Shown here piece by piece: positions 7,236-41,891 of a DNA stretch of 64,000 nt. Each line of letters begins with the position of its first letter. The first letter of the stretch is position 1. Below the pieces are notes generated by a model. It was given only the letters and a program-made list of their open reading frames with translations, was not told the DNA's origin and did not search any database. The position numbers were made by a program, and so were the translations under genes. The stretch comes from Candidatus Multivoradales bacterium (lineage in GTDB: Bacteria; Acidobacteriota; Thermoanaerobaculia; Multivoradales; JAHEKO01), in assembly GCA_965223155.1 (NCBI GenBank), contig CBDCVR010000015.1, positions 640,001 to 704,000 on the forward strand, in the 5' to 3' direction.

Positions 7236-7434
7236 TGAGATTCTCCACTCGCTCCGCTAGGAATCGAAACGATCAAGGCGCCCACCGGCGCCGGGTTTCC
7301 GCTCGTTTTCAACCAAGGACCCGCCGTCTCACCCAGCCCCCCATTCCTTGAACCCTGAGCTACGTTCCTGGAAGGGCACCCCACCTCCTCGTCGTTTCGA
7401 GTCCCTCCCCGCCTTGTCTGAGGCGGGCGCGAAA

Positions 7435-7481
7435 GTACAAGATGTAGTCCCCTCTGTCAAGGCGACCACAATATCCTGTGG
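7435..7481. promoter_or_regulatory. Tandem NrdR boxes
   Basis: GTACAAGATGTAGTCC (7435-7450) and CCACAATATCCTGTGG (7466-7481) match acaCwAtATaTwGtgt, lie 31 bp apart and are upstream of nrdA. Confidence 0.85.
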
Positions 7482-7643
7482 TCTTGCTTGCACAGGACCC
7501 TGTGCAAACCGGGACCGGCGGAAATTTTTCTGTGTTGATCGCTACTTACCGAGACCCTTCGGAACCGGACGAAAGGCGCAAGGCGAGCGTAAAGTTCGGC
7601 CCAGACCGGGCCGTCTTGCCCTCAAAGTAAGGCTTTCTGTAAT

Positions 7644-8750
7644 CTATGGATTCAGGGCTTGTTGCGGGCCGGCAAAGACATGGTACGCGCGCTCGCGCAG
7701 CTCGAGTCGAACCGGACTTCCGACCGGCAGCGTCGCCGACGACAGCGAGCGGACTTCGACGCGCTCGCCGTTGGCCAGTTCCACCAGATCCAGCACGTCG
7801 TGGCCGAAGAATCGGCGATCCACCACGGTTCCGGCGATCCCGCCGCCCTGGGACCAGCGATGGACGATGAAGTCCTCGGGCCGCACGAAGACCACTCCAT
7901 CGCCGTCCGGCGCCTCGCAGGTGGCCTCCCCGAAAACCGACCGGAAGCGGCCCGAGACCACCTCGCATTCGAGCAGGCTGCCCTCGCCCAAGAAACCGGC
8001 GACTTCGGCCGAGACGGGATGGTGGTAGACGGCCTCGGGGGCGCCGGTCTGGACGATCCGGCCCGCCATCATGACCGCGACGACATCCGAGAAGCTCAGA
8101 GCCTCTTCCTGGTCGTGGGTAACCAGGATGGCGGAGAGCTCGGCCTTCTCGAGAATCGTTCGCACCTCATCGCGCACGCGCTCGCGAAGCGAAGCGTCGA
8201 GGCTCGCGAACGGCTCGTCCAGAAGCACCAGCTTGGGCCGCGGCGCCAGCGCCCGGGCCAGGGCCACTCGCTGCCGCTGGCCGCCCGAAAGCTGATCCGG
8301 GAAGCGATCGGCGTGGCCGTCTAGAGCGACCAAGGCCAGCACCTCGCGGATCCTTGCCTCCCGATCCGCTCGGCGGCGGATTCCATAGCCGACGTTGTCG
8401 AAGACGGTCAGGTGCGGGAAAAGCGCTCCCTCCTGAAAGACCATGCCGATGTTGCGCCGCTCCGGCGGAATCCAGGCTTCGAGCCGGTAAGCGCGGGCCG
8501 AGCCGTTGCCGGCCCCAGCATCCCTTCCAGCCGCCTCGACGACGACAGCGCCGGCAAACTCCACGCGCCCCGCATCCGGCTTCTCGAAGCCGGCGATGGT
8601 GCGAAGCAAAGTCGTCTTGCCGCAGCCGCTGGGTCCCACCAGGCCCACGATCTGGCGCTCGCCAACCGCAAGCGTCGCGCGCCGCACCGCCTCGACTCCG
8701 GGATAGGAGACGCAGACGCCGTCGACTCGAAGAAGATCGGTCGCGGCCAT
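7644..8750 (-). CDS. Fe(III)-type ABC transporter ATP-binding protein (FbpC-like)
   Basis: GPSGCGKT, LSGGQ, LLDEPF and TOBE-like tail; ATG at 8750 coupled to the permease stop. Confidence 0.92.
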   Translation of the reverse strand: MAATDLLRVDGVCVSYPGVEAVRRATLAVGERQIVGLVGPSGCGKTTLLRTIAGFEKPDAGRVEFAGAVVVEAAGRDAGAGNGSARAYRLEAWIPPERRNIGMVFQEGALFPHLTVFDNVGYGIRRRADREARIREVLALVALDGHADRFPDQLSGGQRQRVALARALAPRPKLVLLDEPFASLDASLRERVRDEVRTILEKAELSAILVTHDQEEALSFSDVVAVMMAGRIVQTGAPEAVYHHPVSAEVAGFLGEGSLLECEVVSGRFRSVFGEATCEAPDGDGVVFVRPEDFIVHRWSQGGGIAGTVVDRRFFGHDVLDLVELANGERVEVRSLSSATLPVGSPVRLELRERAYHVFAGPQQALNP

Positions 8751-10438
8751 CAGGCGGCGACCTCCCCGGCGGCCGGCCGAGCCTCGCGGGCGGCCGGGCG
8801 CGAGCTTGCCGGACCGCCGTCTCGAAGGACCGGCCTCAGAATCAGCGCGTAGACCGGCAACGCCGAGACTCCAACCAGAATCAAGGCCGGCAACGCAGCC
8901 TGGGAAAAGATGTTCTCTGACGCCGCCGTCCACACACGGGTGGCAAGGGTATCGAACCCGGTGGGCCGGAGGATCAGAGTCGCCGGCAGCTCCTTCATGG
9001 TGGTCAGAAACACCAGACCGGCGCCCGCGGCCAGACCCGGCCGGATGAGGGGCAGGGTCACGCGGCGCAGGACTCCGGCCGGTGAATCCCCCAGACTTCG
9101 TGCGGCTTCCTCGTACCGGCGATCCAGAGACAAGAGCGACGACCGAGTCGCCGCCAGGGCCTCGGGAAGAAAGCGAACCAAGTAGGCAAAGATGAGGACC
9201 GCCAAGCTTTGGTAGAGCGGCCGCGCCAGCCGGGTGGTCAGAAACACCAGAGACAGGGCCACCACGATGCCGGGCAAGGCATAGCCCGAGTAGGAGAGCC
9301 CGAGGACGGCCTGGGAGGCCTTGCCGCCGCGCGCGCTCCCGGGGCGCGTCCCGGGCCGGGTCGACCAGAGCGCGGCAGGCAGGGACAAGGCCACCGCCAC
9401 CAGAGCGGCCAGGGCGGCAACCCCGAGGGAGTTCACCGCGGCCTCACCCGCGATCTCGAGTGGATTGCCGACCCGTAGGGCGCGGACCGCCCAGTGCACG
9501 ATGACCGCGAGCGGTGCGACGAGATTGAGCAGCGCGATGGTGCCGACGCAGAGCAAGGCGGGAGCGCGCCAGCGTCCCAGCCGTACCGGCCGCGTCCTGC
9601 CGGCCGGCCTGGCGCCGCTCGTTCGCACGCGGCGGGCCAACCGGTTCTCGACCGCGATGACGACGAGCGTGGCCGCCACCAGCAAGCTCGCCAGAGCGGC
9701 CGCCACGGATCGATCGAAGAGCCCCTGATAGGCGTTATAGATCGACAGCGTAAAGGTATTGAAGCGAACGATCGACACCGCTCCAAAGTCGGACAGCGTA
9801 TAGAGCGCCACCAAGAGGCCGCCGCCGTAGAGGGCCGGGCGAAGCTGAGGCAAGGTCGCGGTCAGAAAGACGCCAAGCCGCCCGCGGCCCAAACTCCGGG
9901 CCGCTTCTTCGGTCGCCGGATCCACGGTCTTGAGCGCCCCGACGGTGAGCAAGAACACATAGGGGTAGGTAAAGAGCGCCAGCACCAGCCAGGCGCCGAC
10001 GAAGCCGTAGGCGAAACCGGGCAGGGTCTCCACTCCGGCAAAGGCCAGGGCTTTTTGCAGCCAACCGCGCGGCCCCCAGACCGCCACCCAAGAAAAGGCA
10101 GCGACATACGAAGGAAAGACCAGAGGCAGAGCCGCCGCCATCGCCCACAGCCGACGGGTGGGAAGATCGGTTCGGGTCACCAGCCAGGCGAGCAGGACCG
10201 CGAGCGGCACAGCCGTCGCCACCACCGCGCCCACCAAGAGGGCGGTCCGGCCGAAGAGCCGGACAGTCTGCTCGGCCAAGACGATCTCGGCGTAGCGCCG
10301 CCAGCCGATGCCGCCGACGCGCACCAGCAGGTAGAGAATCGGGACGTTGACCGCCGCCGCCGTCATGACCGCCAGCATCGCCGTCCACCCGAACCGGCGC
10401 CCGGTGCGCGGGCCGGCTGGGACGGACACGTCGGACAC
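8750..10438 (-). CDS. Fe(III)-type ABC transporter permease (FbpB-like)
   Basis: Two EEAARSLG motifs and many transmembrane segments. Confidence 0.92.
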   Translation of the reverse strand: MSDVSVPAGPRTGRRFGWTAMLAVMTAAAVNVPILYLLVRVGGIGWRRYAEIVLAEQTVRLFGRTALLVGAVVATAVPLAVLLAWLVTRTDLPTRRLWAMAAALPLVFPSYVAAFSWVAVWGPRGWLQKALAFAGVETLPGFAYGFVGAWLVLALFTYPYVFLLTVGALKTVDPATEEAARSLGRGRLGVFLTATLPQLRPALYGGGLLVALYTLSDFGAVSIVRFNTFTLSIYNAYQGLFDRSVAAALASLLVAATLVVIAVENRLARRVRTSGARPAGRTRPVRLGRWRAPALLCVGTIALLNLVAPLAVIVHWAVRALRVGNPLEIAGEAAVNSLGVAALAALVAVALSLPAALWSTRPGTRPGSARGGKASQAVLGLSYSGYALPGIVVALSLVFLTTRLARPLYQSLAVLIFAYLVRFLPEALAATRSSLLSLDRRYEEAARSLGDSPAGVLRRVTLPLIRPGLAAGAGLVFLTTMKELPATLILRPTGFDTLATRVWTAASENIFSQAALPALILVGVSALPVYALILRPVLRDGGPASSRPAAREARPAAGEVAA

Positions 10439-23927: not shown

Positions 23928-25019
23928 TCACTCTCGACCCCCTCCGGAGTCAAAGAGCGGTAGCTGGTCACCCACCGGCCGGCGAAAGCTGGCGGCAGAC
24001 AGCTCGGGTCGTTCCTCCGGGAAGCCCGCCCGTCGGGCCGCGGTCCGAAAGAGCTGGCGCAGCTGCTCCGCCACCGGTCCCTGGCCGCGCCCCCGCCGCC
24101 CGAAGCGGCTCTCGTTGAGAGCACCCCCGCGCACATCCCGAATGCGAGAGAGAACGTGTTCCCGGCGCTCAGGAGCATGCTCCTCGAGCCACTCCGGAAA
24201 GAGCCGTGCGATCACCCCCGGCATGCGCAGCAGAATCCAGGAGGCGTGGCTTGCTCCGGAGTCGCGGGCCGCCTCTAGGATCGAAGGAATCTCGTGGTCC
24301 GTGAGAGCCGGAATCACGGGCGCAATGAGCACCCCCGCCGGAATCCCGGCTTGGGCCAGTTGCGAGATCGCCTTCAGGCGCTTGGCCGGGGCGCTTGCCC
24401 GCGGTTCGAGCCGGCGGGCGAGCTCGGAGTCCAGAGTCGGAATCGAAACCAGGACGGCGGCGGCCCGGTGCCGGGCAAGCTCCGCTAACGGCTCGACGTC
24501 CCGGGTCACGAGAAAGTTCTTGGTGACCACCGCGACCGGATTCCGGAAGCCCGCCAGAACCTCGAGGCAACCGCGGGTCAACTCGAGCTTCCGCTCGATC
24601 GGCTGGTACGGGTCGGTAACGCCCGAAAGACCCAGCGGCTGCGGCTTCCAAACGGGACGCGCCAGCTCCTCGGCCAGGAGCTCGGGAGCTCGATGCTTGA
24701 CCAGAATCCGGGTCTCGAAATCGAGGCCCGCCGACATCCCCAGATACTCGTGAGTCGGCCGCGCGTAGCAGTACGCACAGCCGTGCTCGCAGCCGCGATA
24801 GGGATTGACCGAAGCGTTGAATCCGACGTCGGGACTCTGGTTGCGGGCGATGACGCCTCTTGCGTCGTCGCGGAAGAAGCGCGTCGGGACGGTTGACGGC
24901 TGCCGCGCCTCGGACTCGGATTCATATTCGACGTCAAGACGCTCGAAGCGCGGCTTGGGGTTGCCGAGGCCCCCCCGACCTCGCACCTCGCTGCGTACCC
25001 GCCGTGGCCGGAATGCCAT
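23928..25019 (-). CDS. Radical SAM protein, PA0069/spore-photoproduct-lyase-like family
   Basis: NPYRGCEHGCAYCYARPTHEY and TDPYQPIE. Confidence 0.92.
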   Translation of the reverse strand: MAFRPRRVRSEVRGRGGLGNPKPRFERLDVEYESESEARQPSTVPTRFFRDDARGVIARNQSPDVGFNASVNPYRGCEHGCAYCYARPTHEYLGMSAGLDFETRILVKHRAPELLAEELARPVWKPQPLGLSGVTDPYQPIERKLELTRGCLEVLAGFRNPVAVVTKNFLVTRDVEPLAELARHRAAAVLVSIPTLDSELARRLEPRASAPAKRLKAISQLAQAGIPAGVLIAPVIPALTDHEIPSILEAARDSGASHASWILLRMPGVIARLFPEWLEEHAPERREHVLSRIRDVRGGALNESRFGRRGRGQGPVAEQLRQLFRTAARRAGFPEERPELSAASFRRPVGDQLPLFDSGGGRE

Positions 25020-26072: not shown

Positions 26073-28040
26073 CTAGTACCAAGTAACCCGGCGTACCGGC
26101 TGGAAGAGCCCGGTCGCCCGGGCGCATTCCGGTTCTACGGGACAAAGGTCGCACTCGGGCTCGGACATCTCCGGACATCGAGAGCGGTTTTGAAACAGGA
26201 AGAAATCGACGGCGCCCATCGAAAGGCCGGACGCCGAAGCTAGCTCGGCCACGGCCAGATAGGAGGCTTCCCGGACGGCGTCGTGCTCGGCAGCCGTCAG
26301 GAGCCGGCGCGCTTCGAGCCGGCCGCGGAGCTGGGGATCTTCGATCCGCACCAGACCCATGCGCAGGCAGCTTCGCTGGACGTGGTAATCGACGATCGGC
26401 GCCAGCTCGTCGGGCCGCTCGCCAGAGGGTCCCGCGGACGAGTCGAGCCAGCGCTCGGGCCGTTGCCGCAGAATTGCCGCCAGCAGCATCGCCTTCTTGC
26501 GAAGAGGATCCTCACGCAGGCCGGGGAGGTGGTCGAGCTGGACGAGCAACGTCCCAAGCGGCTCCGACGCCTCGTTGGCTCGGGTCACGATGGCCGCCGG
26601 CGAACGCCGCCACTCCTTCAGCACCTCCCCATACGAGCTCAGAAGCCGCCAGCGCTCAGCCATCTGCGGGAACGGGCAGACGCCATCGTCCGCCGCCAGG
26701 CGGCGCTCGAGCTCTTCCGGCCGGAGAGCGGCCAGCCGCTCGGGGGTAAACGCCGACCGGTCCTGCCGGAGCCAGCGAAGAAAGGCGGCAAAGAGCGCGT
26801 CCGAGCCTTTGAGACGATCACCGCCGATCCGGGTCCACATCGGCCCAGCGTAAGCCCGCCCATCGTCGTGCCAGAATCCGAACTGAAGCACCGTCACGGC
26901 AAAGAAGAGCTCCAGAGCGCCCTCTTCCTCAGGATCCGGAAACCACGGGCCCACGAACCCAAATACAGTAACTTCATGGTTACCAGACAAGAGCCTGCCG
27001 ATCTGTTGGACTCGGGCCTGATCGACCCGGGCCGCCTTGGTCTCTCGAACGGCCCCGGAGCCTCCCAACCGCCCGCTCCAAACGCCCTCAGAAGCCCCGC
27101 CCGCGCCGGCCTCATCCGCCAGGCTCAAGAGACGCGCGCGCCCTCCGGCCCCAAGCACCCTTGAGGCCAGGGAGACGCCTCGGCGGGCGACGAGCACTGG
27201 ATGCTCGCGGCGGGCCAGGCCCGCCAGGGCGGCACCGCAGAACATGTCGCCGCCACCGGTCGGGTCCGTGACGGGCGCGAGGGCATCGATCCGAGAGGAC
27301 AGAACCGGCCCGGCGGCCTTGGCCGGGGCCGCCTCCCGGACCGGCTCCGACACCACCCGGGTCGAAAACGACCCTTGCACCACCAAAGCGCCACGGGCAC
27401 CGAGGGTCACCAGGCGCAGCCGGCCCGGAGGCGTCGCCAGCGCTTCAGGCATCACCGAGTCATCCTCGGTCACGAGCCAGCCGAAAAGCGAGCGATGCTC
27501 TTCCTCGTTGCAGAAGAAGACGTCGGCCAGCGCGATCGCGGCCAGGAGCTCGGGACGGGCCGCCGCGGCCGCGGCCGGATAAGTCCCCGTCGCCACCAAG
27601 CCGCTCAGGGACCTGAGCTCGCGAACCATCGCCAGTTGGCGCTCGGTCTCGGCGAACGGAATCGAGAAGGCAGCCGCCCACGGGCCGGCGGCGGATCCCA
27701 GCATCGAGATCTCGAGGTCGCTCTCAGCGCCGGGATCGGCGTCCACATAGCGGGCCCGGCCCGCGCCGTCGATCTCGATCTCGAAGCGCGGCAGATCCTC
27801 GACGGCAACCTTGGGACCGAGCCATTCGAGACGGCCGTTCGCCCCGGCCAGCTCGGGCGGCATCGGATCCGGGCGCGGCGCGAGCATGGTCACCTGGGCC
27901 CCGGCGGCCTCCGCCGCCAGAGCGGTAAAGAGCCCGGCGCCGCCGAACATTCGCCGCTCCTCCACACCGGTCCGGACCCGATCCCGGGAGGCTCCCCCGA
28001 CGATCAGGATGCGAGGCCTAGAACCGCTGACGCCGGTCAG
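26073..28040 (-). CDS. PfkB-family kinase fused to a queuosine-salvage (Qng1/DUF2419)-like domain with C-terminal 4-Cys motif
   Basis: N-half ILIVGGASRD, GGAG, FCNEEE, VTLGARGA, DPTGGGD. C-half QFGFW, RKKAMLL, VDYHVQRSCLRMG, C-x7-C-x2-C-x5-C. Start placed at CTG 28040. Confidence 0.75.
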   Translation of the reverse strand: MTGVSGSRPRILIVGGASRDRVRTGVEERRMFGGAGLFTALAAEAAGAQVTMLAPRPDPMPPELAGANGRLEWLGPKVAVEDLPRFEIEIDGAGRARYVDADPGAESDLEISMLGSAAGPWAAAFSIPFAETERQLAMVRELRSLSGLVATGTYPAAAAAARPELLAAIALADVFFCNEEEHRSLFGWLVTEDDSVMPEALATPPGRLRLVTLGARGALVVQGSFSTRVVSEPVREAAPAKAAGPVLSSRIDALAPVTDPTGGGDMFCGAALAGLARREHPVLVARRGVSLASRVLGAGGRARLLSLADEAGAGGASEGVWSGRLGGSGAVRETKAARVDQARVQQIGRLLSGNHEVTVFGFVGPWFPDPEEEGALELFFAVTVLQFGFWHDDGRAYAGPMWTRIGGDRLKGSDALFAAFLRWLRQDRSAFTPERLAALRPEELERRLAADDGVCPFPQMAERWRLLSSYGEVLKEWRRSPAAIVTRANEASEPLGTLLVQLDHLPGLREDPLRKKAMLLAAILRQRPERWLDSSAGPSGERPDELAPIVDYHVQRSCLRMGLVRIEDPQLRGRLEARRLLTAAEHDAVREASYLAVAELASASGLSMGAVDFFLFQNRSRCPEMSEPECDLCPVEPECARATGLFQPVRRVTWY

Positions 28041-28076
28041 GATCGATCCCCTTCGCGGCCGCGGTCCCAGAAGCCG

Positions 28077-29321
28077 CTAGGCCGACTCGACCGGCAGAAC
28101 ACCGTCCAGAACCTCGCTCGAGCTCTCCTCGTCGCGCCCAATCCCGGCCGCCAGCAGACGCGCGCCGACCATCAAGATCGCGGCCAGCCAGAACGGCCAC
28201 CGAATGCCGACGTGCTGAAAGACCGCACCCGCCCAGATCGGGCCGACCATGCGAGCCACGCCGCCGAAGGCCTGCTGAACGCCCAGGATCAAGCCGGTCT
28301 GGCCTTCGGGCGCGCGGTGCGAGACCAGCGAGGTCGTGGTGGGGAACAAGAGGGCCGTCCCGACCGGAATCAGCAATACGCCGGCGCACAGCGTCCAGAT
28401 CGATCCGGCAAAGGGCGCCGCCGCCATGCCCACCGCTACCGCCAGCGCGCCCAGCCGCATCGCTCCGCGCTCGCCGAACCTTGCCACCGCCGGGCCCAGA
28501 AGAAGCGATCGCATCACCAGCGACACGCCGCCGATGTACATGAAGAACCAGCCGATGGTCTTCTCATTGATACCAAAGACGCGCTCGAGGTAAAGCGCGA
28601 AGATCCCGTTCATGGCCATGAACGCCATCATGCCCAGGGTGTAAACCCAGACCAGCCGGGCCAGAGGATGGGCGGGATGCCGCAGGAAGGCTCCAATGGC
28701 CTTGCGCACGCTGCCTCGACGTCGCTTCGTCGCCCCGTCGGCCGCCCGACCGGATCCACTTGCCGAGCTCGACTCGGGCAGCCAGCGCAAGCCAAAGGCG
28801 AAATTAAGGACGCACAGGATCGCCGCCAGGTAGCCGGGGCCGATCCAGCCCAGCGCGGCCGCCAACGATCCCAGCGCCGGACCCATCATGACGCCGGCGC
28901 TGGTGGCCGCCGTCAGCCAGCCCAGAGCCTTGGCGCGATCCTGCCGCGGCACCGAGTCACTGACGTAGGCCTGAACGACGCCGGTCGTGCCGCTGCCGGC
29001 CCCCTGGACGAAGCGAGACAGGAAGAGCAGCCAGACGGCATCCGCCACTTCGAAGATGGTGTAGGCACCGGCCGAGACCAGAAGACCCAGCAGAATCATC
29101 GGGCGGCGCCCATAGTGGTCCGAGAGCCGGCCCCAGAGCGGCGCCGTGATGAGCTGGGCAAGCGCGAACATCGAAACCAGGGCTCCGACTCGGATCGGAT
29201 CGGCTCCCAGCTTTTCGGCGTAGAAAGGCAGAAGCGGCAGGACGATGAAGAACCCCAGCATGTCGACGAAGACCGTCGCCATCAGCACCCAGATCCTGCG
29301 CAGCGGATGGCCGTCGCTCAT
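28077..29321 (-). CDS. MFS transporter (TetA/DHA1-like)
   Basis: GRLSDHYGRRP motif A and 12 TM segments; ATG overlaps the permease stop. Confidence 0.92.
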   Translation of the reverse strand: MSDGHPLRRIWVLMATVFVDMLGFFIVLPLLPFYAEKLGADPIRVGALVSMFALAQLITAPLWGRLSDHYGRRPMILLGLLVSAGAYTIFEVADAVWLLFLSRFVQGAGSGTTGVVQAYVSDSVPRQDRAKALGWLTAATSAGVMMGPALGSLAAALGWIGPGYLAAILCVLNFAFGLRWLPESSSASGSGRAADGATKRRRGSVRKAIGAFLRHPAHPLARLVWVYTLGMMAFMAMNGIFALYLERVFGINEKTIGWFFMYIGGVSLVMRSLLLGPAVARFGERGAMRLGALAVAVGMAAAPFAGSIWTLCAGVLLIPVGTALLFPTTTSLVSHRAPEGQTGLILGVQQAFGGVARMVGPIWAGAVFQHVGIRWPFWLAAILMVGARLLAAGIGRDEESSSEVLDGVLPVESA

Positions 29322-31012
29322 GCCGTCGCCTCCCGGCGGCTCCAGGCCACGAATGCGAATGCGCTTGCCACCATGAGCAGGACGCCGTAGGCGGCGGCGA
29401 CTCCAGTTTCTTGCAGACGCAGGTTCGACAGAATCTCGATCGAGATCGGCCGGGTTTCGAAGGTGTAGAGGACGATCGAGGTGACGAAGTCCCCAAGCGC
29501 GGTGATGAACGCCAGCCCGGCGCCGGCGGCCAGCGCCGGACGCACCATCGGTAACACCACCCGGCGCAGCCGCAGCCAGCGGCCCGCGCCCAGTCCGGCC
29601 GCGGCCTCCTCCAGCGTTCGATCGAATTGCCGTAAGCCGGCAAAAGCGCTCCTGCCGGTGACCGGAAGGCTGCGCACCAGGTACGCCAGGGGCAGGATCA
29701 CCGGCGTGCCGATCAGAACGAACCGGCCGGCCCATGGGGCCGAAACCGCGAACGCGGTTGCCAGAGCGATGGCGAAGACGGTGCCGGGAATCGCCCAGGG
29801 CAGGGCGACCAGGGTCTCCAAAAGCGAGCCCAGCCGGCCGCCCCGGGCCAGCGCCGTGCGCGCCGTAGCCAGGCCTAGAGCCAGCGCTCCGGCGGTCGAG
29901 GCCGCCGCCATCCACAGAGAATTCCCGACCGGCCGCAGCCGCTCAGGCGCCGAGATCAGCGACCGGTAGTTGGACAGGTCCAGGACTGGCGGCAGCGCTT
30001 CGACCGTCCACGTCCCGGAAGGCACGAACGACACCACCAGCAGCGTCAAGTGCGGCAGAAGAAGAAAGAGCGCGAGCGACCATCCGGCGGCGGTCGCCAG
30101 AGCTCGCGCGGCCGGGCTCTCGAGCGACCGCCGCCGCGGGGCCAGTCCGCGCACGCCGCCGATGACCGCCGAGCGGCGCCGATCGAAGGCGATCAAGGCC
30201 CCGAGACCGGCCACCGCCACCAGCGCCAGGACTACGGTCTCGACCTGGGCCATCGTGGTCTCGCCGTTGAGCTTCGAGGCGACGATCTGGGTGGTCATCA
30301 CCCGGAAGCCGCCGCCAAAGATGTACGGCGCCGAAAACGACGACAGCGAGGTCATGAAGGTCAGAAGCGCGGCGCCCGCCAGCGCCGGCTTGAGAAGCGG
30401 CAGAACCACCCGCCGGAGCCGCGCCCAGCGACCCGCCCCGAGCGCCGCCGCCGCTTCTTCCATCGATGGGTCGAGCCGGCTCAGCGCGGCCCGCGCGAAG
30501 AGGTAGAAATAGACGTACATCGAATAGGCGTGCACCAAGAGAATGGCACCGGCGCCGCGCAGCCGCCACGGCGGCCGCTCCAGCCCCAGGACAAAGCCGG
30601 CCGCCCGCGTCAGAAAGCCGCTCTCGCCGTACAGGAAGAGAAAGGCCAGAACGCCGACCAGCGGTGGCAGCGCCACCGGCAGGGCGATCAATCCGCCCAG
30701 AACGGCCCTGCCGGGAAACTCGAAACGCTCGAAGACGAACGCCAGGGGCACGCCGACTGCCGCCGCCAGCGCCACCGAGGCGAGCGAGATCCAGACGCTG
30801 CGCCAGAGCGCCAACCACTCGTCCGGCCGGCGGCCAAACTCGGCAAAACCAGCGAACGACGGTTGCGTCGGAATCCCGAGCGCTTCGAGTACCGTCAGCG
30901 CCAGCGGATAGCCCACCAGCCAGGCGAGAACGAGAGCCAGAGCCGGCCCCCAGAGCCGATTTCGGAGCCGGGACCGAATCGGCCCGGGCGCCCGCCGCGG
31001 CTCGGCGCTCAA
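29318..31012 (-). CDS. ABC transporter permease (FbpB/AfuB/ThiP class)
   Basis: Two EEAAAxLGA motifs. Confidence 0.9.
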   Translation of the reverse strand: MSAEPRRAPGPIRSRLRNRLWGPALALVLAWLVGYPLALTVLEALGIPTQPSFAGFAEFGRRPDEWLALWRSVWISLASVALAAAVGVPLAFVFERFEFPGRAVLGGLIALPVALPPLVGVLAFLFLYGESGFLTRAAGFVLGLERPPWRLRGAGAILLVHAYSMYVYFYLFARAALSRLDPSMEEAAAALGAGRWARLRRVVLPLLKPALAGAALLTFMTSLSSFSAPYIFGGGFRVMTTQIVASKLNGETTMAQVETVVLALVAVAGLGALIAFDRRRSAVIGGVRGLAPRRRSLESPAARALATAAGWSLALFLLLPHLTLLVVSFVPSGTWTVEALPPVLDLSNYRSLISAPERLRPVGNSLWMAAASTAGALALGLATARTALARGGRLGSLLETLVALPWAIPGTVFAIALATAFAVSAPWAGRFVLIGTPVILPLAYLVRSLPVTGRSAFAGLRQFDRTLEEAAAGLGAGRWLRLRRVVLPMVRPALAAGAGLAFITALGDFVTSIVLYTFETRPISIEILSNLRLQETGVAAAYGVLLMVASAFAFVAWSRREATA

Positions 31013-32088
31013 GAGCGCACCCGCTCGGCAGCGGCGAAGGCAACCGGTGGATGAGCGTCCGGACGCGGCTCGAGAGTGACCTCGGCGCCCGGCGTCCGGT
31101 CGGACTCATCCAGCCACTCGACCGTACCGCCAGACGCCAACCGGCCGGTCACGAGGCTGTCCCGGCCCACGAACCGGCGCTCCTCGACCTGCGCAGCGAG
31201 GGTCGAGCCCGCCCGGGTCGGGCCAACCGGACCCGGGCCCGAAGTTGCTCTCCAGAACTCGGGCCGCACATAGAGCTCGACGCGCTCGCCGGCACTCAGT
31301 CGCCCCGTCCCGACCTCGGCCGGAAGGCTCGATCCGTTCTCGAGCTCGACCGTGCCGTCCTCTCGCCAGCGCCCGGCGAGCACCGACGACCTGCCCACGA
31401 AACCGGCCACGAACGGGGTCTCGGGCCGGCGGTAGATGGCCTCGGGCGTGCCCACCTGATGCAACCGCCCTTCTTCGAGTACTGCCACCAAGGTACCTAC
31501 GTCGAACGCCTCGTCTTGTTCGTGCGTCACCCAGACCGCGGTGATCCCGATCCGGTCGAGGGTGGCCGCCAGCTCGCGCCGCGTTCGCTCGCGCAGATCC
31601 GGGTCCAGGTTCGAGAGCGGCTCGTCCAGGAGCAGCACGTCCGGCTCCGGTGCCAGCGCCCGTGCCAGCGCGACCCGTTGCTGCTGACCGCCGGAGATCG
31701 CGTCCACCCGCCGGTCGGCGAAGTCCTCGAGATCGACCGCCGCCAACGCCTTGTCGATCCGGCCGGCCGGGTCGAGGCCACGGGCCTCAAGACCGAACGC
31801 CACGTTCTCGCCCACCGACAGGTGTGGGAAAAGCGCGTAGTGCTGGAACACCATGCCGAAGTTGCGCCGCTCAGGAGGAAGCTCGCCCAGCGAGCCGCCG
31901 GCCAGGCGTACGTCACCGGTGTCCGCCCGCTCGAAGCCGGCAACGAGACGCAGCAGCGTCGTCTTACCGCTGCCGCTCCGGCCCAGGAGGACCAAAGTGT
32001 CGCCCTCTTCGACCGACACCGAAACATCGCTCAGTACCCGGCTCGAACCGAAGTGCTTCGACAGCGAGTCCAACTCGAGATAGGCCAC
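31009..32088 (-). CDS. ABC transporter ATP-binding protein
   Basis: GRSGSGKT, ISGGQ, LLLDEP. Confidence 0.92.
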   Translation of the reverse strand: MAYLELDSLSKHFGSSRVLSDVSVSVEEGDTLVLLGRSGSGKTTLLRLVAGFERADTGDVRLAGGSLGELPPERRNFGMVFQHYALFPHLSVGENVAFGLEARGLDPAGRIDKALAAVDLEDFADRRVDAISGGQQQRVALARALAPEPDVLLLDEPLSNLDPDLRERTRRELAATLDRIGITAVWVTHEQDEAFDVGTLVAVLEEGRLHQVGTPEAIYRRPETPFVAGFVGRSSVLAGRWREDGTVELENGSSLPAEVGTGRLSAGERVELYVRPEFWRATSGPGPVGPTRAGSTLAAQVEERRFVGRDSLVTGRLASGGTVEWLDESDRTPGAEVTLEPRPDAHPPVAFAAAERVRS

Positions 32089-32092
32089 GCTC

Positions 32093-33196
32093 TCAGCTCT
32101 TCGCCCGGACCGTGCGGTCCCACCGGGTCATCCAACCCTGGCCGCGGGAGGCGACGAGATCCCAGTCGAGTTCGGCGGGAACGATCTCGGCCAAGGCGCG
32201 CTCCGCCCAGTCCGGTAGCGACCCGGCCGGAAGGTCCTGCCTGGCCGGCAACCGGAAGGCGCCTTCCGCCACTAGACGTAACGCCTCGTCACCGCCCAGC
32301 CACTCGACCAAGCGCCGGGCCTCGGCTTGGTGCGGCGCTCCCGCGACGACGCCGATCGCGTCGTCGATCACCGGCGTGCCAGACGCCGGGAAAACGTAGT
32401 CAATGGGCGCCTCCCGCTCCCGGAGCAGCAAAGCGTCGGTGAGCTCCCAGATCGTCACCAGCCCCTCTTGACGCAGGATCTTCTCGAACAGCAGCGCCGG
32501 ATTGACGACGTAGTCCGAGGTCTGCGCGTCGAGGCGTCGCAGCCACTCGAAGCCGGCCTCGTCGGATCCGGTCTCGGCCACCGATCGCGCCAGGATCAGG
32601 CCGAACGCCGTGCGCATGGTGCCACTGGCGAGCGGGTCCCGGATCACCACCTTGCCCCGCCAGCGCGGATCCAGAAGATCGTCCCAGTCGCGGGGCGCCT
32701 CCTCGGGCGACACCGCTTCCGAGTTGAAAAAGAGAATCGGTACCGCCCGGTAGAGGCCGAAGTACCGGTCGTCCGGATACCGGCTCGACTCCGGCAAGCG
32801 ATCCGCCCAGCTTGGCCGGAAAGACGCCAGGAGCTCTTCCTCCGCACCACGCGAGAAGATCGTGGCGGGACCGCCAAACCAGACGTCGGCCTGGGGATTG
32901 GCCCGCTCGGAGCGAACCCGGTCGTAGACCTCCTGCGAGCCCATGTCGAGCCAGCGCACGTCGACGTCCGGATTGGCCTCTTCGAAGGCCGCCTCCACCA
33001 ACTCGAGCAGATCGCGGCCGTGGGGCGAATACACGACGACCGGCGTGCGGCCATCCCCGCAACCACCGAAACCGACGAAGGCGGCGAGAGCCACCATGAC
33101 CGGCACGAGCTTCGGCGCCAGCACCGACATCTGGACCAAGCGGCGACGCCGGCGGCGGCGGCCAACCGCTCTAGCAGCACTCCACGTGAAGGACAT
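32093..33196 (-). CDS. ABC substrate-binding lipoprotein (AfuA/FbpA fold, lacking the iron YY pair)
   Basis: VYSPHG, NPQADVWFGG, DPLASGT; start uncertain. Confidence 0.85.
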   Translation of the reverse strand: MSFTWSAARAVGRRRRRRRLVQMSVLAPKLVPVMVALAAFVGFGGCGDGRTPVVVYSPHGRDLLELVEAAFEEANPDVDVRWLDMGSQEVYDRVRSERANPQADVWFGGPATIFSRGAEEELLASFRPSWADRLPESSRYPDDRYFGLYRAVPILFFNSEAVSPEEAPRDWDDLLDPRWRGKVVIRDPLASGTMRTAFGLILARSVAETGSDEAGFEWLRRLDAQTSDYVVNPALLFEKILRQEGLVTIWELTDALLLREREAPIDYVFPASGTPVIDDAIGVVAGAPHQAEARRLVEWLGGDEALRLVAEGAFRLPARQDLPAGSLPDWAERALAEIVPAELDWDLVASRGQGWMTRWDRTVRAKS

Positions 33197-41374: not shown

Positions 41375-41448
41375 TGGCTGGGACGCAGGGATTCGAACCC
41401 CGATTCCACGGTCCAGAGCCGTGTGTCCTACCATTGAACGACGTCCCA
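41375..41448 (-). tRNA. tRNA-Gln(CTG)
   Basis: TGGGACG acceptor stem, anticodon arm CACGG-CT-CTG-GA-CCGTG, GGTTCGAATCC and encoded CCA. Confidence 0.96.

Positions 41449-41795: not shown

Positions 41796-41891
<96 letters not shown>

Follow-up and report, generated by a model that had tools for sequence, protein, structure and literature searches.

The question raised by this locus is which compound would be handled by a protein that unites, in a single polypeptide, a kinase and a domain of the kind that releases bases from nucleotides. The gene lies on the minus strand of a window of 64,000 nucleotides, taken from the genome of a Candidatus Multivoradales bacterium (Acidobacteriota). It was first described, from the letters of the window and their translation (the sequence-only reading), as a PfkB kinase fused to a Qng1-like glycosylase domain with an iron-sulphur motif, which might phosphorylate a modified nucleoside and then cleave it. 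Qng1 (QNG1, DUF2419) is a queuosine-5'-monophosphate (Q-5'MP) N-glycosylase, of which structures are available from Sphaerobacter thermophilus (StQng1; 7u07, 7u91, 7uk3) and human (7ugk). The conserved fusion of a PfkB kinase, a Qng1-like domain and a four-cysteine loop is borne out by the present analysis and phosphorylation followed by cleavage is favoured; queuosine is a possible substrate. We propose, at somewhat less than an even chance, that the protein is a two-step salvage enzyme, in which an imported nucleoside would be phosphorylated at its 5' position and then cleaved at its N-glycosidic bond, the base being guanine-like and likeliest a 7-deazaguanine.

A kinase and a Qng1-like domain in one frame

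The features of the gene on which the argument depends are as follows.

26073 to 28040, minus strand: whole PfkB/Qng1-like fusion gene, 655 aa if the CTG at 28040 is the start, colinear with 31 fusions from other genomes
28047 to 28054, minus strand: Shine-Dalgarno-like GAAGGGGA, 6 nt before CTG 28040, with a putative ribosome-binding role
27111 to 28016, minus strand: PfkB-family kinase domain, residues ~9-310, delimited by Pfam, invariant columns, ribokinase-family structure alignments and Foldseek
27246 to 27266, minus strand: DPTGGGD anion hole and catalytic base, D259-D265, aligned to the GAGD of solved PfkB kinases
27042 to 27110, minus strand: interdomain linker, residues 311-333, ~18 residues longer than in homologues and modelled with a predicted local distance difference test score (pLDDT) <50
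26076 to 27041, minus strand: predicted Qng1-fold (DUF2419-like) nucleotide N-glycosylase domain, residues 334-655, from the AlphaFold2 (AF2) model, VIA structural alignment and PF10343
26382 to 26390, minus strand: D551-Y552-H553, aligned with D231 (nucleophile), Y232 and K233 of StQng1 and invariant in 32/32 fusions
26124 to 26177, minus strand: four-cysteine (Cys4) loop, C622-x7-C630-x2-C633-x5-C639, invariant in 32/32 fusions, probable [4Fe-4S] site
26076 to 26105, minus strand: C-terminal tail LFQPVRRVTWY, ending in Y655, aligned with the StQng1 tail

The C-terminal half was compared with known structures both within the whole protein and alone. The full-length AF2 model (pLDDT 83.1, predicted template modelling score (pTM) 0.85) has StQng1 as its top Foldseek match (E 1.9e-13, 312 columns, 22% identity), with human QNG1 second; template modelling scores of the StQng1 matches, normalised to the target, are 0.74-0.75. 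The model of the C-domain alone (pLDDT 93.3, pTM 0.92) was aligned by VIA against 48,161 chains and gave a Z of 29.5 with 7ugk (root-mean-square deviation 2.5, 289 aligned) and of 28.6 with 7u07 (2.4, 283 aligned). In the latter alignment residues 1-321 of the model are paired with residues 20-322 of the chain, termini included; the fold is shared over the whole domain. Against DNA glycosylases the scores are far lower, namely 14.3 for AGOG, 14.2 for endonuclease III (EndoIII; 2abk) and 12.4 for MutY. As modelled, the C-terminal half is structurally a Qng1, with Qng1-specific insertions, and these scores dispose of the objection that it might bear no similarity to Qng1. The family profile Q_salvage (PF10343) points the same way, with a match of 8.1e-10 and 39.2 bits against a cut-off of 25; among relatives the scores range over 18-43 bits, and for several there is no match. 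The HhH-GPD profile remains below threshold at 14 bits (cut-off 26.2). In contrast to Qng1, which is described as metal independent (PMC9881137), the C-domain is fused to a kinase and carries an insertion of ~18 residues with the Cys4 loop in its C-terminal tail.

The attribution of the N-terminal half to the ribokinase family, first made from its motifs, is confirmed by an above-threshold PfkB match (PF00294, 2e-11, 44.2 bits, cut-off 25.8). The recognisable motifs are the N-terminal D20, the glycine pair G33-G34, the NxxE motif (N178, E181) and the catalytic D265; G33-G34, N178, E181 and D265 are invariant among the fusions and aligned with solved PfkB kinases, and within DPTGGGD the residues D259, P260, T261, G262, G264 and D265 do not vary. 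Ribokinases appear among the Foldseek matches of the full-length model from E 1.8e-11, after Qng1 and QNG1, and the solved relatives (1rka, 3kd6, 2c49 and 3b1q, for example) have in common with this half the fold and the motifs for ATP binding and phosphoryl transfer. An insertion of 20 residues at 238-257 is unique to the copy in the window and is modelled with low confidence, as is an extension of the linker at ~311-331 that homologues lack.

The reading frame extends from the TAG of the upstream MFS gene (28077-28079) to the TAG at 26073-26075, before which the protein ends in WY. Its G+C content by codon position (0.75/0.54/0.80) fits a coding frame. All the motifs originally reported (DPTGGGD, QFGFW, LKGSDALF, RKKAMLL and VDYHVQRSCLRMG) are found in the translation of 26073-28100 on the minus strand, as is the C-terminal CPEMSEPECDLCPVEPEC, with its spacing C-x7-C-x2-C-x5-C. 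They vary little or not at all in 15 homologous fusions and in 32/32 C-domains, a conservation that exceeds chance. The gene as originally delimited is thus a true frame on the minus strand; its start at 28040 is a CTG, and is plausible by reasoning from the context. Upstream of the first kinase strand, RILIVGGASRD, the frame contains no ATG, GTG or TTG. Were translation to begin at the first canonical start, GTG 27965, the product would have 630 aa and lack that strand, which is likewise cut off in the 625-aa protein called in the database (P0001). D20, in frame, invariant and at the position of the family's substrate-binding Asp, lies upstream of the first canonical start and would be translated only from a non-canonical one. 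Since a conserved first kinase strand lies in frame upstream of GTG 27965, and since GAAGGGGA precedes CTG 28040, we consider this non-canonical codon a plausible and likely start.

Active site, order of the two proposed steps and the cysteine loop

Residues were paired with those of StQng1 by a hidden Markov model profile alignment to 7u07 (E 5.6e-4), not through a superposed ligand; the pairing reproduces the numbering of Hung et al. (2023; PMC9881137). Of the StQng1 residues, F75, W76, G92, K199, D231, Y232, E267, R271, D298, P309 and the terminal Tyr are kept, and two are conservatively replaced, I203 by Leu (L519) and W302 by Phe (F616). The C-domain consequently has in common with Qng1 the nucleophile pair Asp-Tyr, the Lys of the helix-hairpin-helix (HhH) motif (K199, here K515, invariant in 32/32), the Asp facing the guanine (D298, here D612), the base-stacking positions, the Phe that stacks on the ribose and the C-terminal Tyr. 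Recognition of a 7-deazaguanine in StQng1 involves D298, I203 and W302, which correspond to D612, L519 and F616. The catalytic and base pairings (F75, K199, I203, D231-Y232, D298, W302 and the terminal Tyr) are invariant in 32/32 fusions and kept in 70-74 of 77 representatives of the wider family, the column of W302 being divided between 36 Phe and 35 Trp. At the columns of D551-Y552-H553 the family has D in 74/77, Y in 70/77 and H in 74/77. The tail behaves in the same manner, its F, Q, P, V, R and terminal Y being invariant among the 32 fusions; in StQng1 the terminal carboxylate of Y323 is part of the active site, and tags placed at the C-terminus inactivate Qng1 (PMC9881137). More generally, the four Cys, D-Y-H, RKK and the Tyr-ended tail are kept in all 32 C-domains (the window's and 31 others). 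Judged by these alignments, the catalytic apparatus, the handling of the ribose and the recognition of the guanine face are retained. Of the two catalytic Asp of Qng1, the alignment of which the sequence-only reading had proposed to check, D231 corresponds to the invariant D551, and the place of D207 is taken by an aliphatic residue.

The order of the two steps can be approached from the same comparison. It could be reversed, with the glycosylase cleaving the nucleoside and the PfkB domain serving as a ribokinase on the released ribose; we regard this as improbable. Ribokinases are the nearest solved structures of the N-terminal half, there is a weak match to TIGR02152, and StQng1 cleaves queuosine only 1.7-fold more slowly than Q-5'MP (PMC9881137). 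However, the ribokinase equivalogs fall far below their cut-offs (TIGR02152, 23.4 against 299.65 bits; PRK11142, 12.3 against 341), and no NCBIfam equivalog is reached by the kinase half, for which ribokinase and fructokinase matches are far below threshold. In the structure alignment with E. coli ribokinase, the positions of K43 and N46, which we take to be ribose binders, are Ala and Tyr in the fusion, in a domain that otherwise has the fold and motifs of PfkB ribokinases and nucleoside kinases; this substitution makes a plain ribokinase less likely. Next to the catalytic Asp-Tyr, moreover, at the site that receives the 5'-phosphate in Qng1, there are a His and two Arg that do not vary. The Arg in question are residues 556 and 560, near the phosphate site; R80 of StQng1 itself falls in a loop of the alignment that bears insertions and deletions.

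The sequence-only reading regarded the iron-sulphur motif as an addition to a Qng1-like domain, with a spacing close to that of EndoIII. The spacing is indeed close, since the endonuclease III (Nth) of the same genome ends in C-x6-C-x2-C-x5-C and only the first interval differs. An addition is improbable: the loop is common to most stand-alone members of the family, each of its Cys columns being Cys in 74-75 of 77 fused and stand-alone rows, and in a profile comparison with the genome's own Nth, albeit a weak one (E 0.022, probability 2%), VDTH falls on VDYH and the four Cys on the four Cys with one gap. From this alignment, from the structural match to EndoIII, which covers residues 6-311 of the C-domain model, and from the presence of the loop in most stand-alone members, we infer that it is an inherited EndoIII-like cluster loop. 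Its first Cys takes the place of L308 of StQng1. The four invariant Cys probably hold a structural [4Fe-4S] cluster. Genes of the cysteine desulfurase type adjoin the fusion at two other loci (SufS and SufE at L041, Aminotran_5 at L007), which is compatible with an iron-sulphur protein; such loci are too few to weigh.

These resemblances also bear on whether the C-domain could be an EndoIII/MutY-type glycosylase acting on DNA, with the kinase in an unrelated role. The Cys4 loop in the same place, the VD-x-H motif and an HhH fold with Z of 12-14 to EndoIII, MutY and AGOG speak for it, and an AlkZ-related gene adjoins the fusion at locus L008. Yet Qng1 gives a Z twice as large, over 283-289 aligned residues against 207-234, and the protein differs from EndoIII by C-x7 for C-x6, by ~100 extra residues of Qng1-type insertions and by its invariant tail with a terminal Tyr. 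The Qng1-specific parts that block the DNA cleft (PMC9881137) are also modelled in the C-domain, and HhH-GPD stays below its cut-off. A fusion with a small-molecule kinase and neighbouring nucleoside transporters are ill-suited to DNA repair. There is no sign of DNA as a substrate, and we consider a role on DNA highly improbable.

Distribution and neighbourhood of the fusion

Among 5.8 billion protein clusters, a word-indexed search in which 8000 candidates were scored yielded 16 proteins at E 0.001 or better: the window's own call of 625 aa and others of 589-616 aa, 37-46% identical. In the source databases such homologues are unnamed or called 'sugar/nucleoside kinase (ribokinase family)'. 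A scan of one genome per species gave 61 loci, of which 31 have a colinear full-length fusion; in one further locus (L024) the frame is broken after residue 223. All carriers in the scan are metagenome-assembled genomes (MAGs), belonging to Gemmatimonadota, Acidobacteria, Chloroflexota, Myxococcales, Actinomycetota, Marinimicrobia and Gamma- and Deltaproteobacteria, with one spirochaete. Within the order of genome G016 the fusion is present in 27/27 genomes. Three genomes of that order (G159, G160 and G161) have two copies, one of ~470 bits and a divergent one of ~328 bits, and the divergent type occurs alone in G240, G244, G250, G287 and G292.

The C-domain has a wider distribution than the fusion. 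When 1.84 billion representatives were searched exhaustively with its profile, 751 matched at E<=0.001 (438 at 1e-10, 123 at 1e-30), and the 80 that span >250 profile positions, the window's row included, were taken for architecture. Stand-alone proteins of ~300-390 aa account for 59 of them and fused forms for 18 (the window's and P0105 counted), the other 3 having shorter N-terminal extensions. On these alignments the C-domain is part of a large four-cysteine family whose members mostly stand alone. In a quick, unfinished maximum-likelihood tree of the Cys4 Qng1-like rows, a single 39-row clade (SH-aLRT 98) takes in every fused form, intermixed with stand-alone ones, and a 29-row clade is purely stand-alone. 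P0105 (554 aa) combines the four-cysteine Qng1-like domain with a GTP cyclohydrolase II (PF00925, 4.5e-38), and its subgroup (relatives P0095, P0097, P0108 and P0123), which also ends in WY, may hint at cleavage of a different phosphoribosyl N-glycoside. Unfused kinases of the fusion's subfamily, of ~280-310 aa and 250-320 bits, were found at ~10 loci (L042-L047, L049-L052). No Qng1-like domain lies near them within the stretches fetched, and their neighbours (pantothenate genes, a phosphoribosyltransferase, a cytosine/purine permease) are varied and uninformative. In a Pelolinea MAG (L030) a gene at 7332-9095 encodes a Qng1-like domain with a very divergent N-terminal domain (kinase profile E 6.5e-6), and a separate PfkB kinase gene (9117-10037) adjoins it in convergent orientation.

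In the window, the genes directly upstream of the fusion encode transporters.

28077 to 29321, minus strand: MFS transporter gene (Pfam MFS_1, 1.5e-61), directly upstream, its stop 36 nt from CTG 28040; candidate importer
29318 to 33196, minus strand: ABC importer genes, namely binding protein (32093-33196), ATPase (31009-32088) and permease (29318-31012)

The order on this strand is therefore ABC binding protein, ATPase, permease, MFS transporter and fusion. The ATG of the MFS gene at 29321 overlaps the stop of the ABC permease as ATGA (29318-29321), which suggests translational coupling of the two importers, and the spacing of the genes would possibly make the ABC genes, the MFS gene and the fusion one operon. 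When 121 genomes of the same phylum were sampled, one other carrier was found, G081, which has on one strand a TonB-type outer-membrane barrel, a CNT nucleoside transporter and the fusion, in this order. Of 33 loci outside this genome, 6 (L066, L006 and L020-L023) have a CNT gene near the fusion, the two being immediate neighbours in 4; at L025 a 5'-nucleotidase is upstream and a xanthine/uracil permease downstream. At the level of gene context, these neighbours favour an imported nucleoside as the substrate, and with it a kinase acting before a glycosylase. An all-against-all clustering of 153 neighbour proteins found no neighbours shared across phyla, and Pfam on 106 of them gave scattered hints only, the crude gene calling having missed several CNT genes that were later recovered.

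A radical SAM gene of the PA0069 family at 23931-25019 on the minus strand (NF033668, 453.6 bits) was considered as a stand-in for a queuine lyase and judged incidental. The family is above its cut-off in 13/35 genomes, including QueC-positive carriers and the non-carriers G147 and G037, and in only 5/15 carriers negative for QueC and QueF; it never adjoins the fusion at other loci, and no link of queuine with a photoproduct lyase was found in the searchable literature. Elsewhere in the window, two divergent tRNA genes lie at 41378-41448 (minus) and 41796-41885 (plus), and the segment 46001-52000 has a G+C content of 0.57-0.60 against ~0.68 elsewhere; it may be foreign or mobile DNA.

Proposed substrate and role in salvage

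The genome itself, 98.66% complete, contains TGT, QueA and QueG. QueC, QueD, QueF, QueH and QueT were not found in it, QPTR gives a sub-threshold match only, and the fusion is its only PF10343 match. This combination implies that an organism apparently devoid of preQ0 synthesis needs an outside source of 7-deazaguanine, for which no known importer or hydrolase was found in the genome. The sequence-only reading had suggested a survey of the fusion against tgt and against the loss of queC, queD, queE and queF. Among the carriers, TGT is present in 29/32 carriers, QueA in 29/32, QueF in 15/32 and QPTR in 14/32; the absence of QueC does not track the fusion. A raw tally put QueC in 26/32 carriers, mostly through short N-terminal matches in long frames, and only matches to the full profile were counted. 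In the window's phylum QueC occurs in 113/121 genomes (111/119 without the unpublished G055 and G080); G000 lacks it, as do G147 and G037, its mates in family and order. Of the 27 genomes in the order of G016, 2 have it. In G016's phylum as a whole, a lineage-matched control removed the absence of QueC as support for queuosine salvage, and the apparent association of the fusion with loss of QueC is due to which lineages carry it. In an actinomycete MAG (G027:C3:1243208-1245316), adjacent matches to TGT and QueA are each interrupted by a single in-frame TGA, for which pseudogenes, recoding or errors in the sequence could account.

The mechanism proposed is as follows. A transporter, here the candidate MFS protein and elsewhere CNT, would import a nucleoside; the N-terminal PfkB kinase would phosphorylate its 5'-OH with ATP; and the C-terminal Qng1-fold domain would hydrolyse the N-glycosidic bond of the 5'-monophosphate via Asp551, as in Qng1 and the HhH glycosylases, giving the free base and ribose 5-phosphate. 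A structural [4Fe-4S] cluster, a legacy of an ancestor resembling EndoIII, would be bound by the four Cys of the tail. What was observed is the architecture, the fold, the conserved catalytic residues, the transporter neighbours and the pathway gaps; the two activities, the order in which they act, the substrate and the cluster are proposed on this basis. By analogy and by context, we regard the putative sequence of import, 5'-phosphorylation and hydrolysis as well supported. The base would be guanine-like and likeliest a 7-deazaguanine, either queuine released from queuosine or a base of the preQ type, which may feed the TGT/QueA/QueG route of a genome unable to make preQ0. Queuosine or another 7-deazaguanine nucleoside is most likely as a single class of substrate, mainly in view of the activity of Qng1 and the pathway gaps of the genome itself.

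Several observations weigh against this proposal. At the level of the protein, the identity of the C-domain to Qng1 is only 20-23%, the Q_salvage match spans positions 5-134 of 285 in the profile, under half, and the likely start codon of the fusion, CTG 28040, is non-canonical. In the pocket that receives the cyclopentenediol side chain of queuine, Y93 and W94 become the Ser and Asp of KGSD, H53 becomes Phe or Tyr, W48 and P46 become Phe, and W299 is variable; N72 is replaced by Gln, D207 by an aliphatic residue and the phosphate ligand K233 by the invariant His, with Q306 variable. By alignment, the cyclopentenediol pocket and part of the phosphate site are remodelled. One may speculate that the Asp at the position of W94 could pair with the 7-aminomethyl nitrogen common to queuine and preQ1. 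At the level of genomes, full-length QueC is present in 7/32 carriers, to which G005 adds a fragment of 40 residues at the end of a contig, and also in G081; in G016's phylum it is found in 3/18 carriers against 29/133 non-carriers, with no association. Where QueA and QueG are present, TGT would be expected to insert preQ1, and queuine, once released, would depend on a lyase such as QueL. Most neighbourhoods of the fusion are not conserved across genomes, and in an Rfam search over the window the two tRNAs alone reach the gathering score, with no riboswitch near the operon. The fusion to GTP cyclohydrolase II in a sister subgroup suggests that substrates vary within the family. For queuosine in particular, it is the remodelled pocket, the presence of QueA and QueG and the failed co-occurrence control that count against it.

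Much of this could also be explained if the same kinase-then-glycosylase chemistry were applied to another guanine-type nucleoside, such as ordinary, damaged or modified guanosine from RNA turnover, with a role in nutrient scavenging or sanitation and not in queuosine salvage. We regard this as a serious, if rather doubtful, explanation. The side-chain pocket is changed, in a domain that keeps the Asp facing the guanine and the residues that stack on the base; the fusion pervades an entire order, occurs in QueC-positive genomes and is unlinked to QueC loss; its neighbours are general CNT transporters or, in L025, a 5'-nucleotidase and a xanthine/uracil permease; and the subgroup of P0105 shows a related enzyme in other company. 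Against it, StQng1 and HsQNG1, the only characterised members of the fold, leave AMP, UMP, CMP and GMP uncleaved (PMC9881137), it would be wasteful of ATP to pair a kinase with an enzyme that cleaves GMP, and the genome needs 7-deazaguanine from outside, no other recognisable salvage gene having been found in it.

Salvage of a 7-deazaguanine nucleoside by phosphorylation and cleavage would have parallels in known systems. Pseudouridine kinase, a PfkB protein, and pseudouridine-5'-phosphate glycosidase are known both as separate and as fused genes. The logic of that system is the same, the PfkB kinase making the 5'-monophosphate of a modified nucleoside and a monophosphate-specific second enzyme splitting the glycosidic bond; the glycosidase has a fold unrelated to that of the fusion and cleaves a C-C bond. 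The QueK/QueL/QrtT system of Clostridioides difficile converts imported queuosine into a base that a TGT of the preQ1 type can use, in a genome unable to make preQ0; unlike the fusion, QueK is a Ca-dependent nucleoside hydrolase that acts on the nucleoside with no kinase step. No description of the fusion, of a queuosine kinase or of an iron-sulphur Qng1 was found in the searchable literature, nor of the invariant Cys4 loop of this family.

The finding bears on a gap that has accompanied Qng1 since its definition. The enzyme prefers Q-5'MP over queuosine, and the kinase making Q-5'MP is, as the sequence-only reading had stated, said to be unidentified in PMC9881137; the conserved fusion offers a concrete candidate kinase subfamily. 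It can be hypothesised, as a rather doubtful case, that the missing queuosine kinase is found in this Rosetta-stone fusion, which would convert imported queuosine to Q-5'MP and then to queuine within one polypeptide, its iron-sulphur Qng1 being the evolutionary link between DNA glycosylases of the EndoIII type and the eukaryotic QNG1, which has no cluster. If this were true, the unfused kinases of the subfamily would point to queuosine kinases elsewhere, and carriers that keep QueA and QueG would have to hold an undiscovered queuine-to-preQ1 enzyme. With homologues unnamed or called sugar/nucleoside kinases, a whole salvage step would be invisible in current annotation. Should the Cys4 loop bind a cluster, the fusion and its stand-alone relatives would connect the iron-sulphur glycosylases of DNA repair with the nucleotide glycosylase Qng1. 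For the bacterium itself, the pair formed by the MFS transporter and the fusion is the only candidate found that may supply a 7-deazaguanine base to its own TGT, QueA and QueG.

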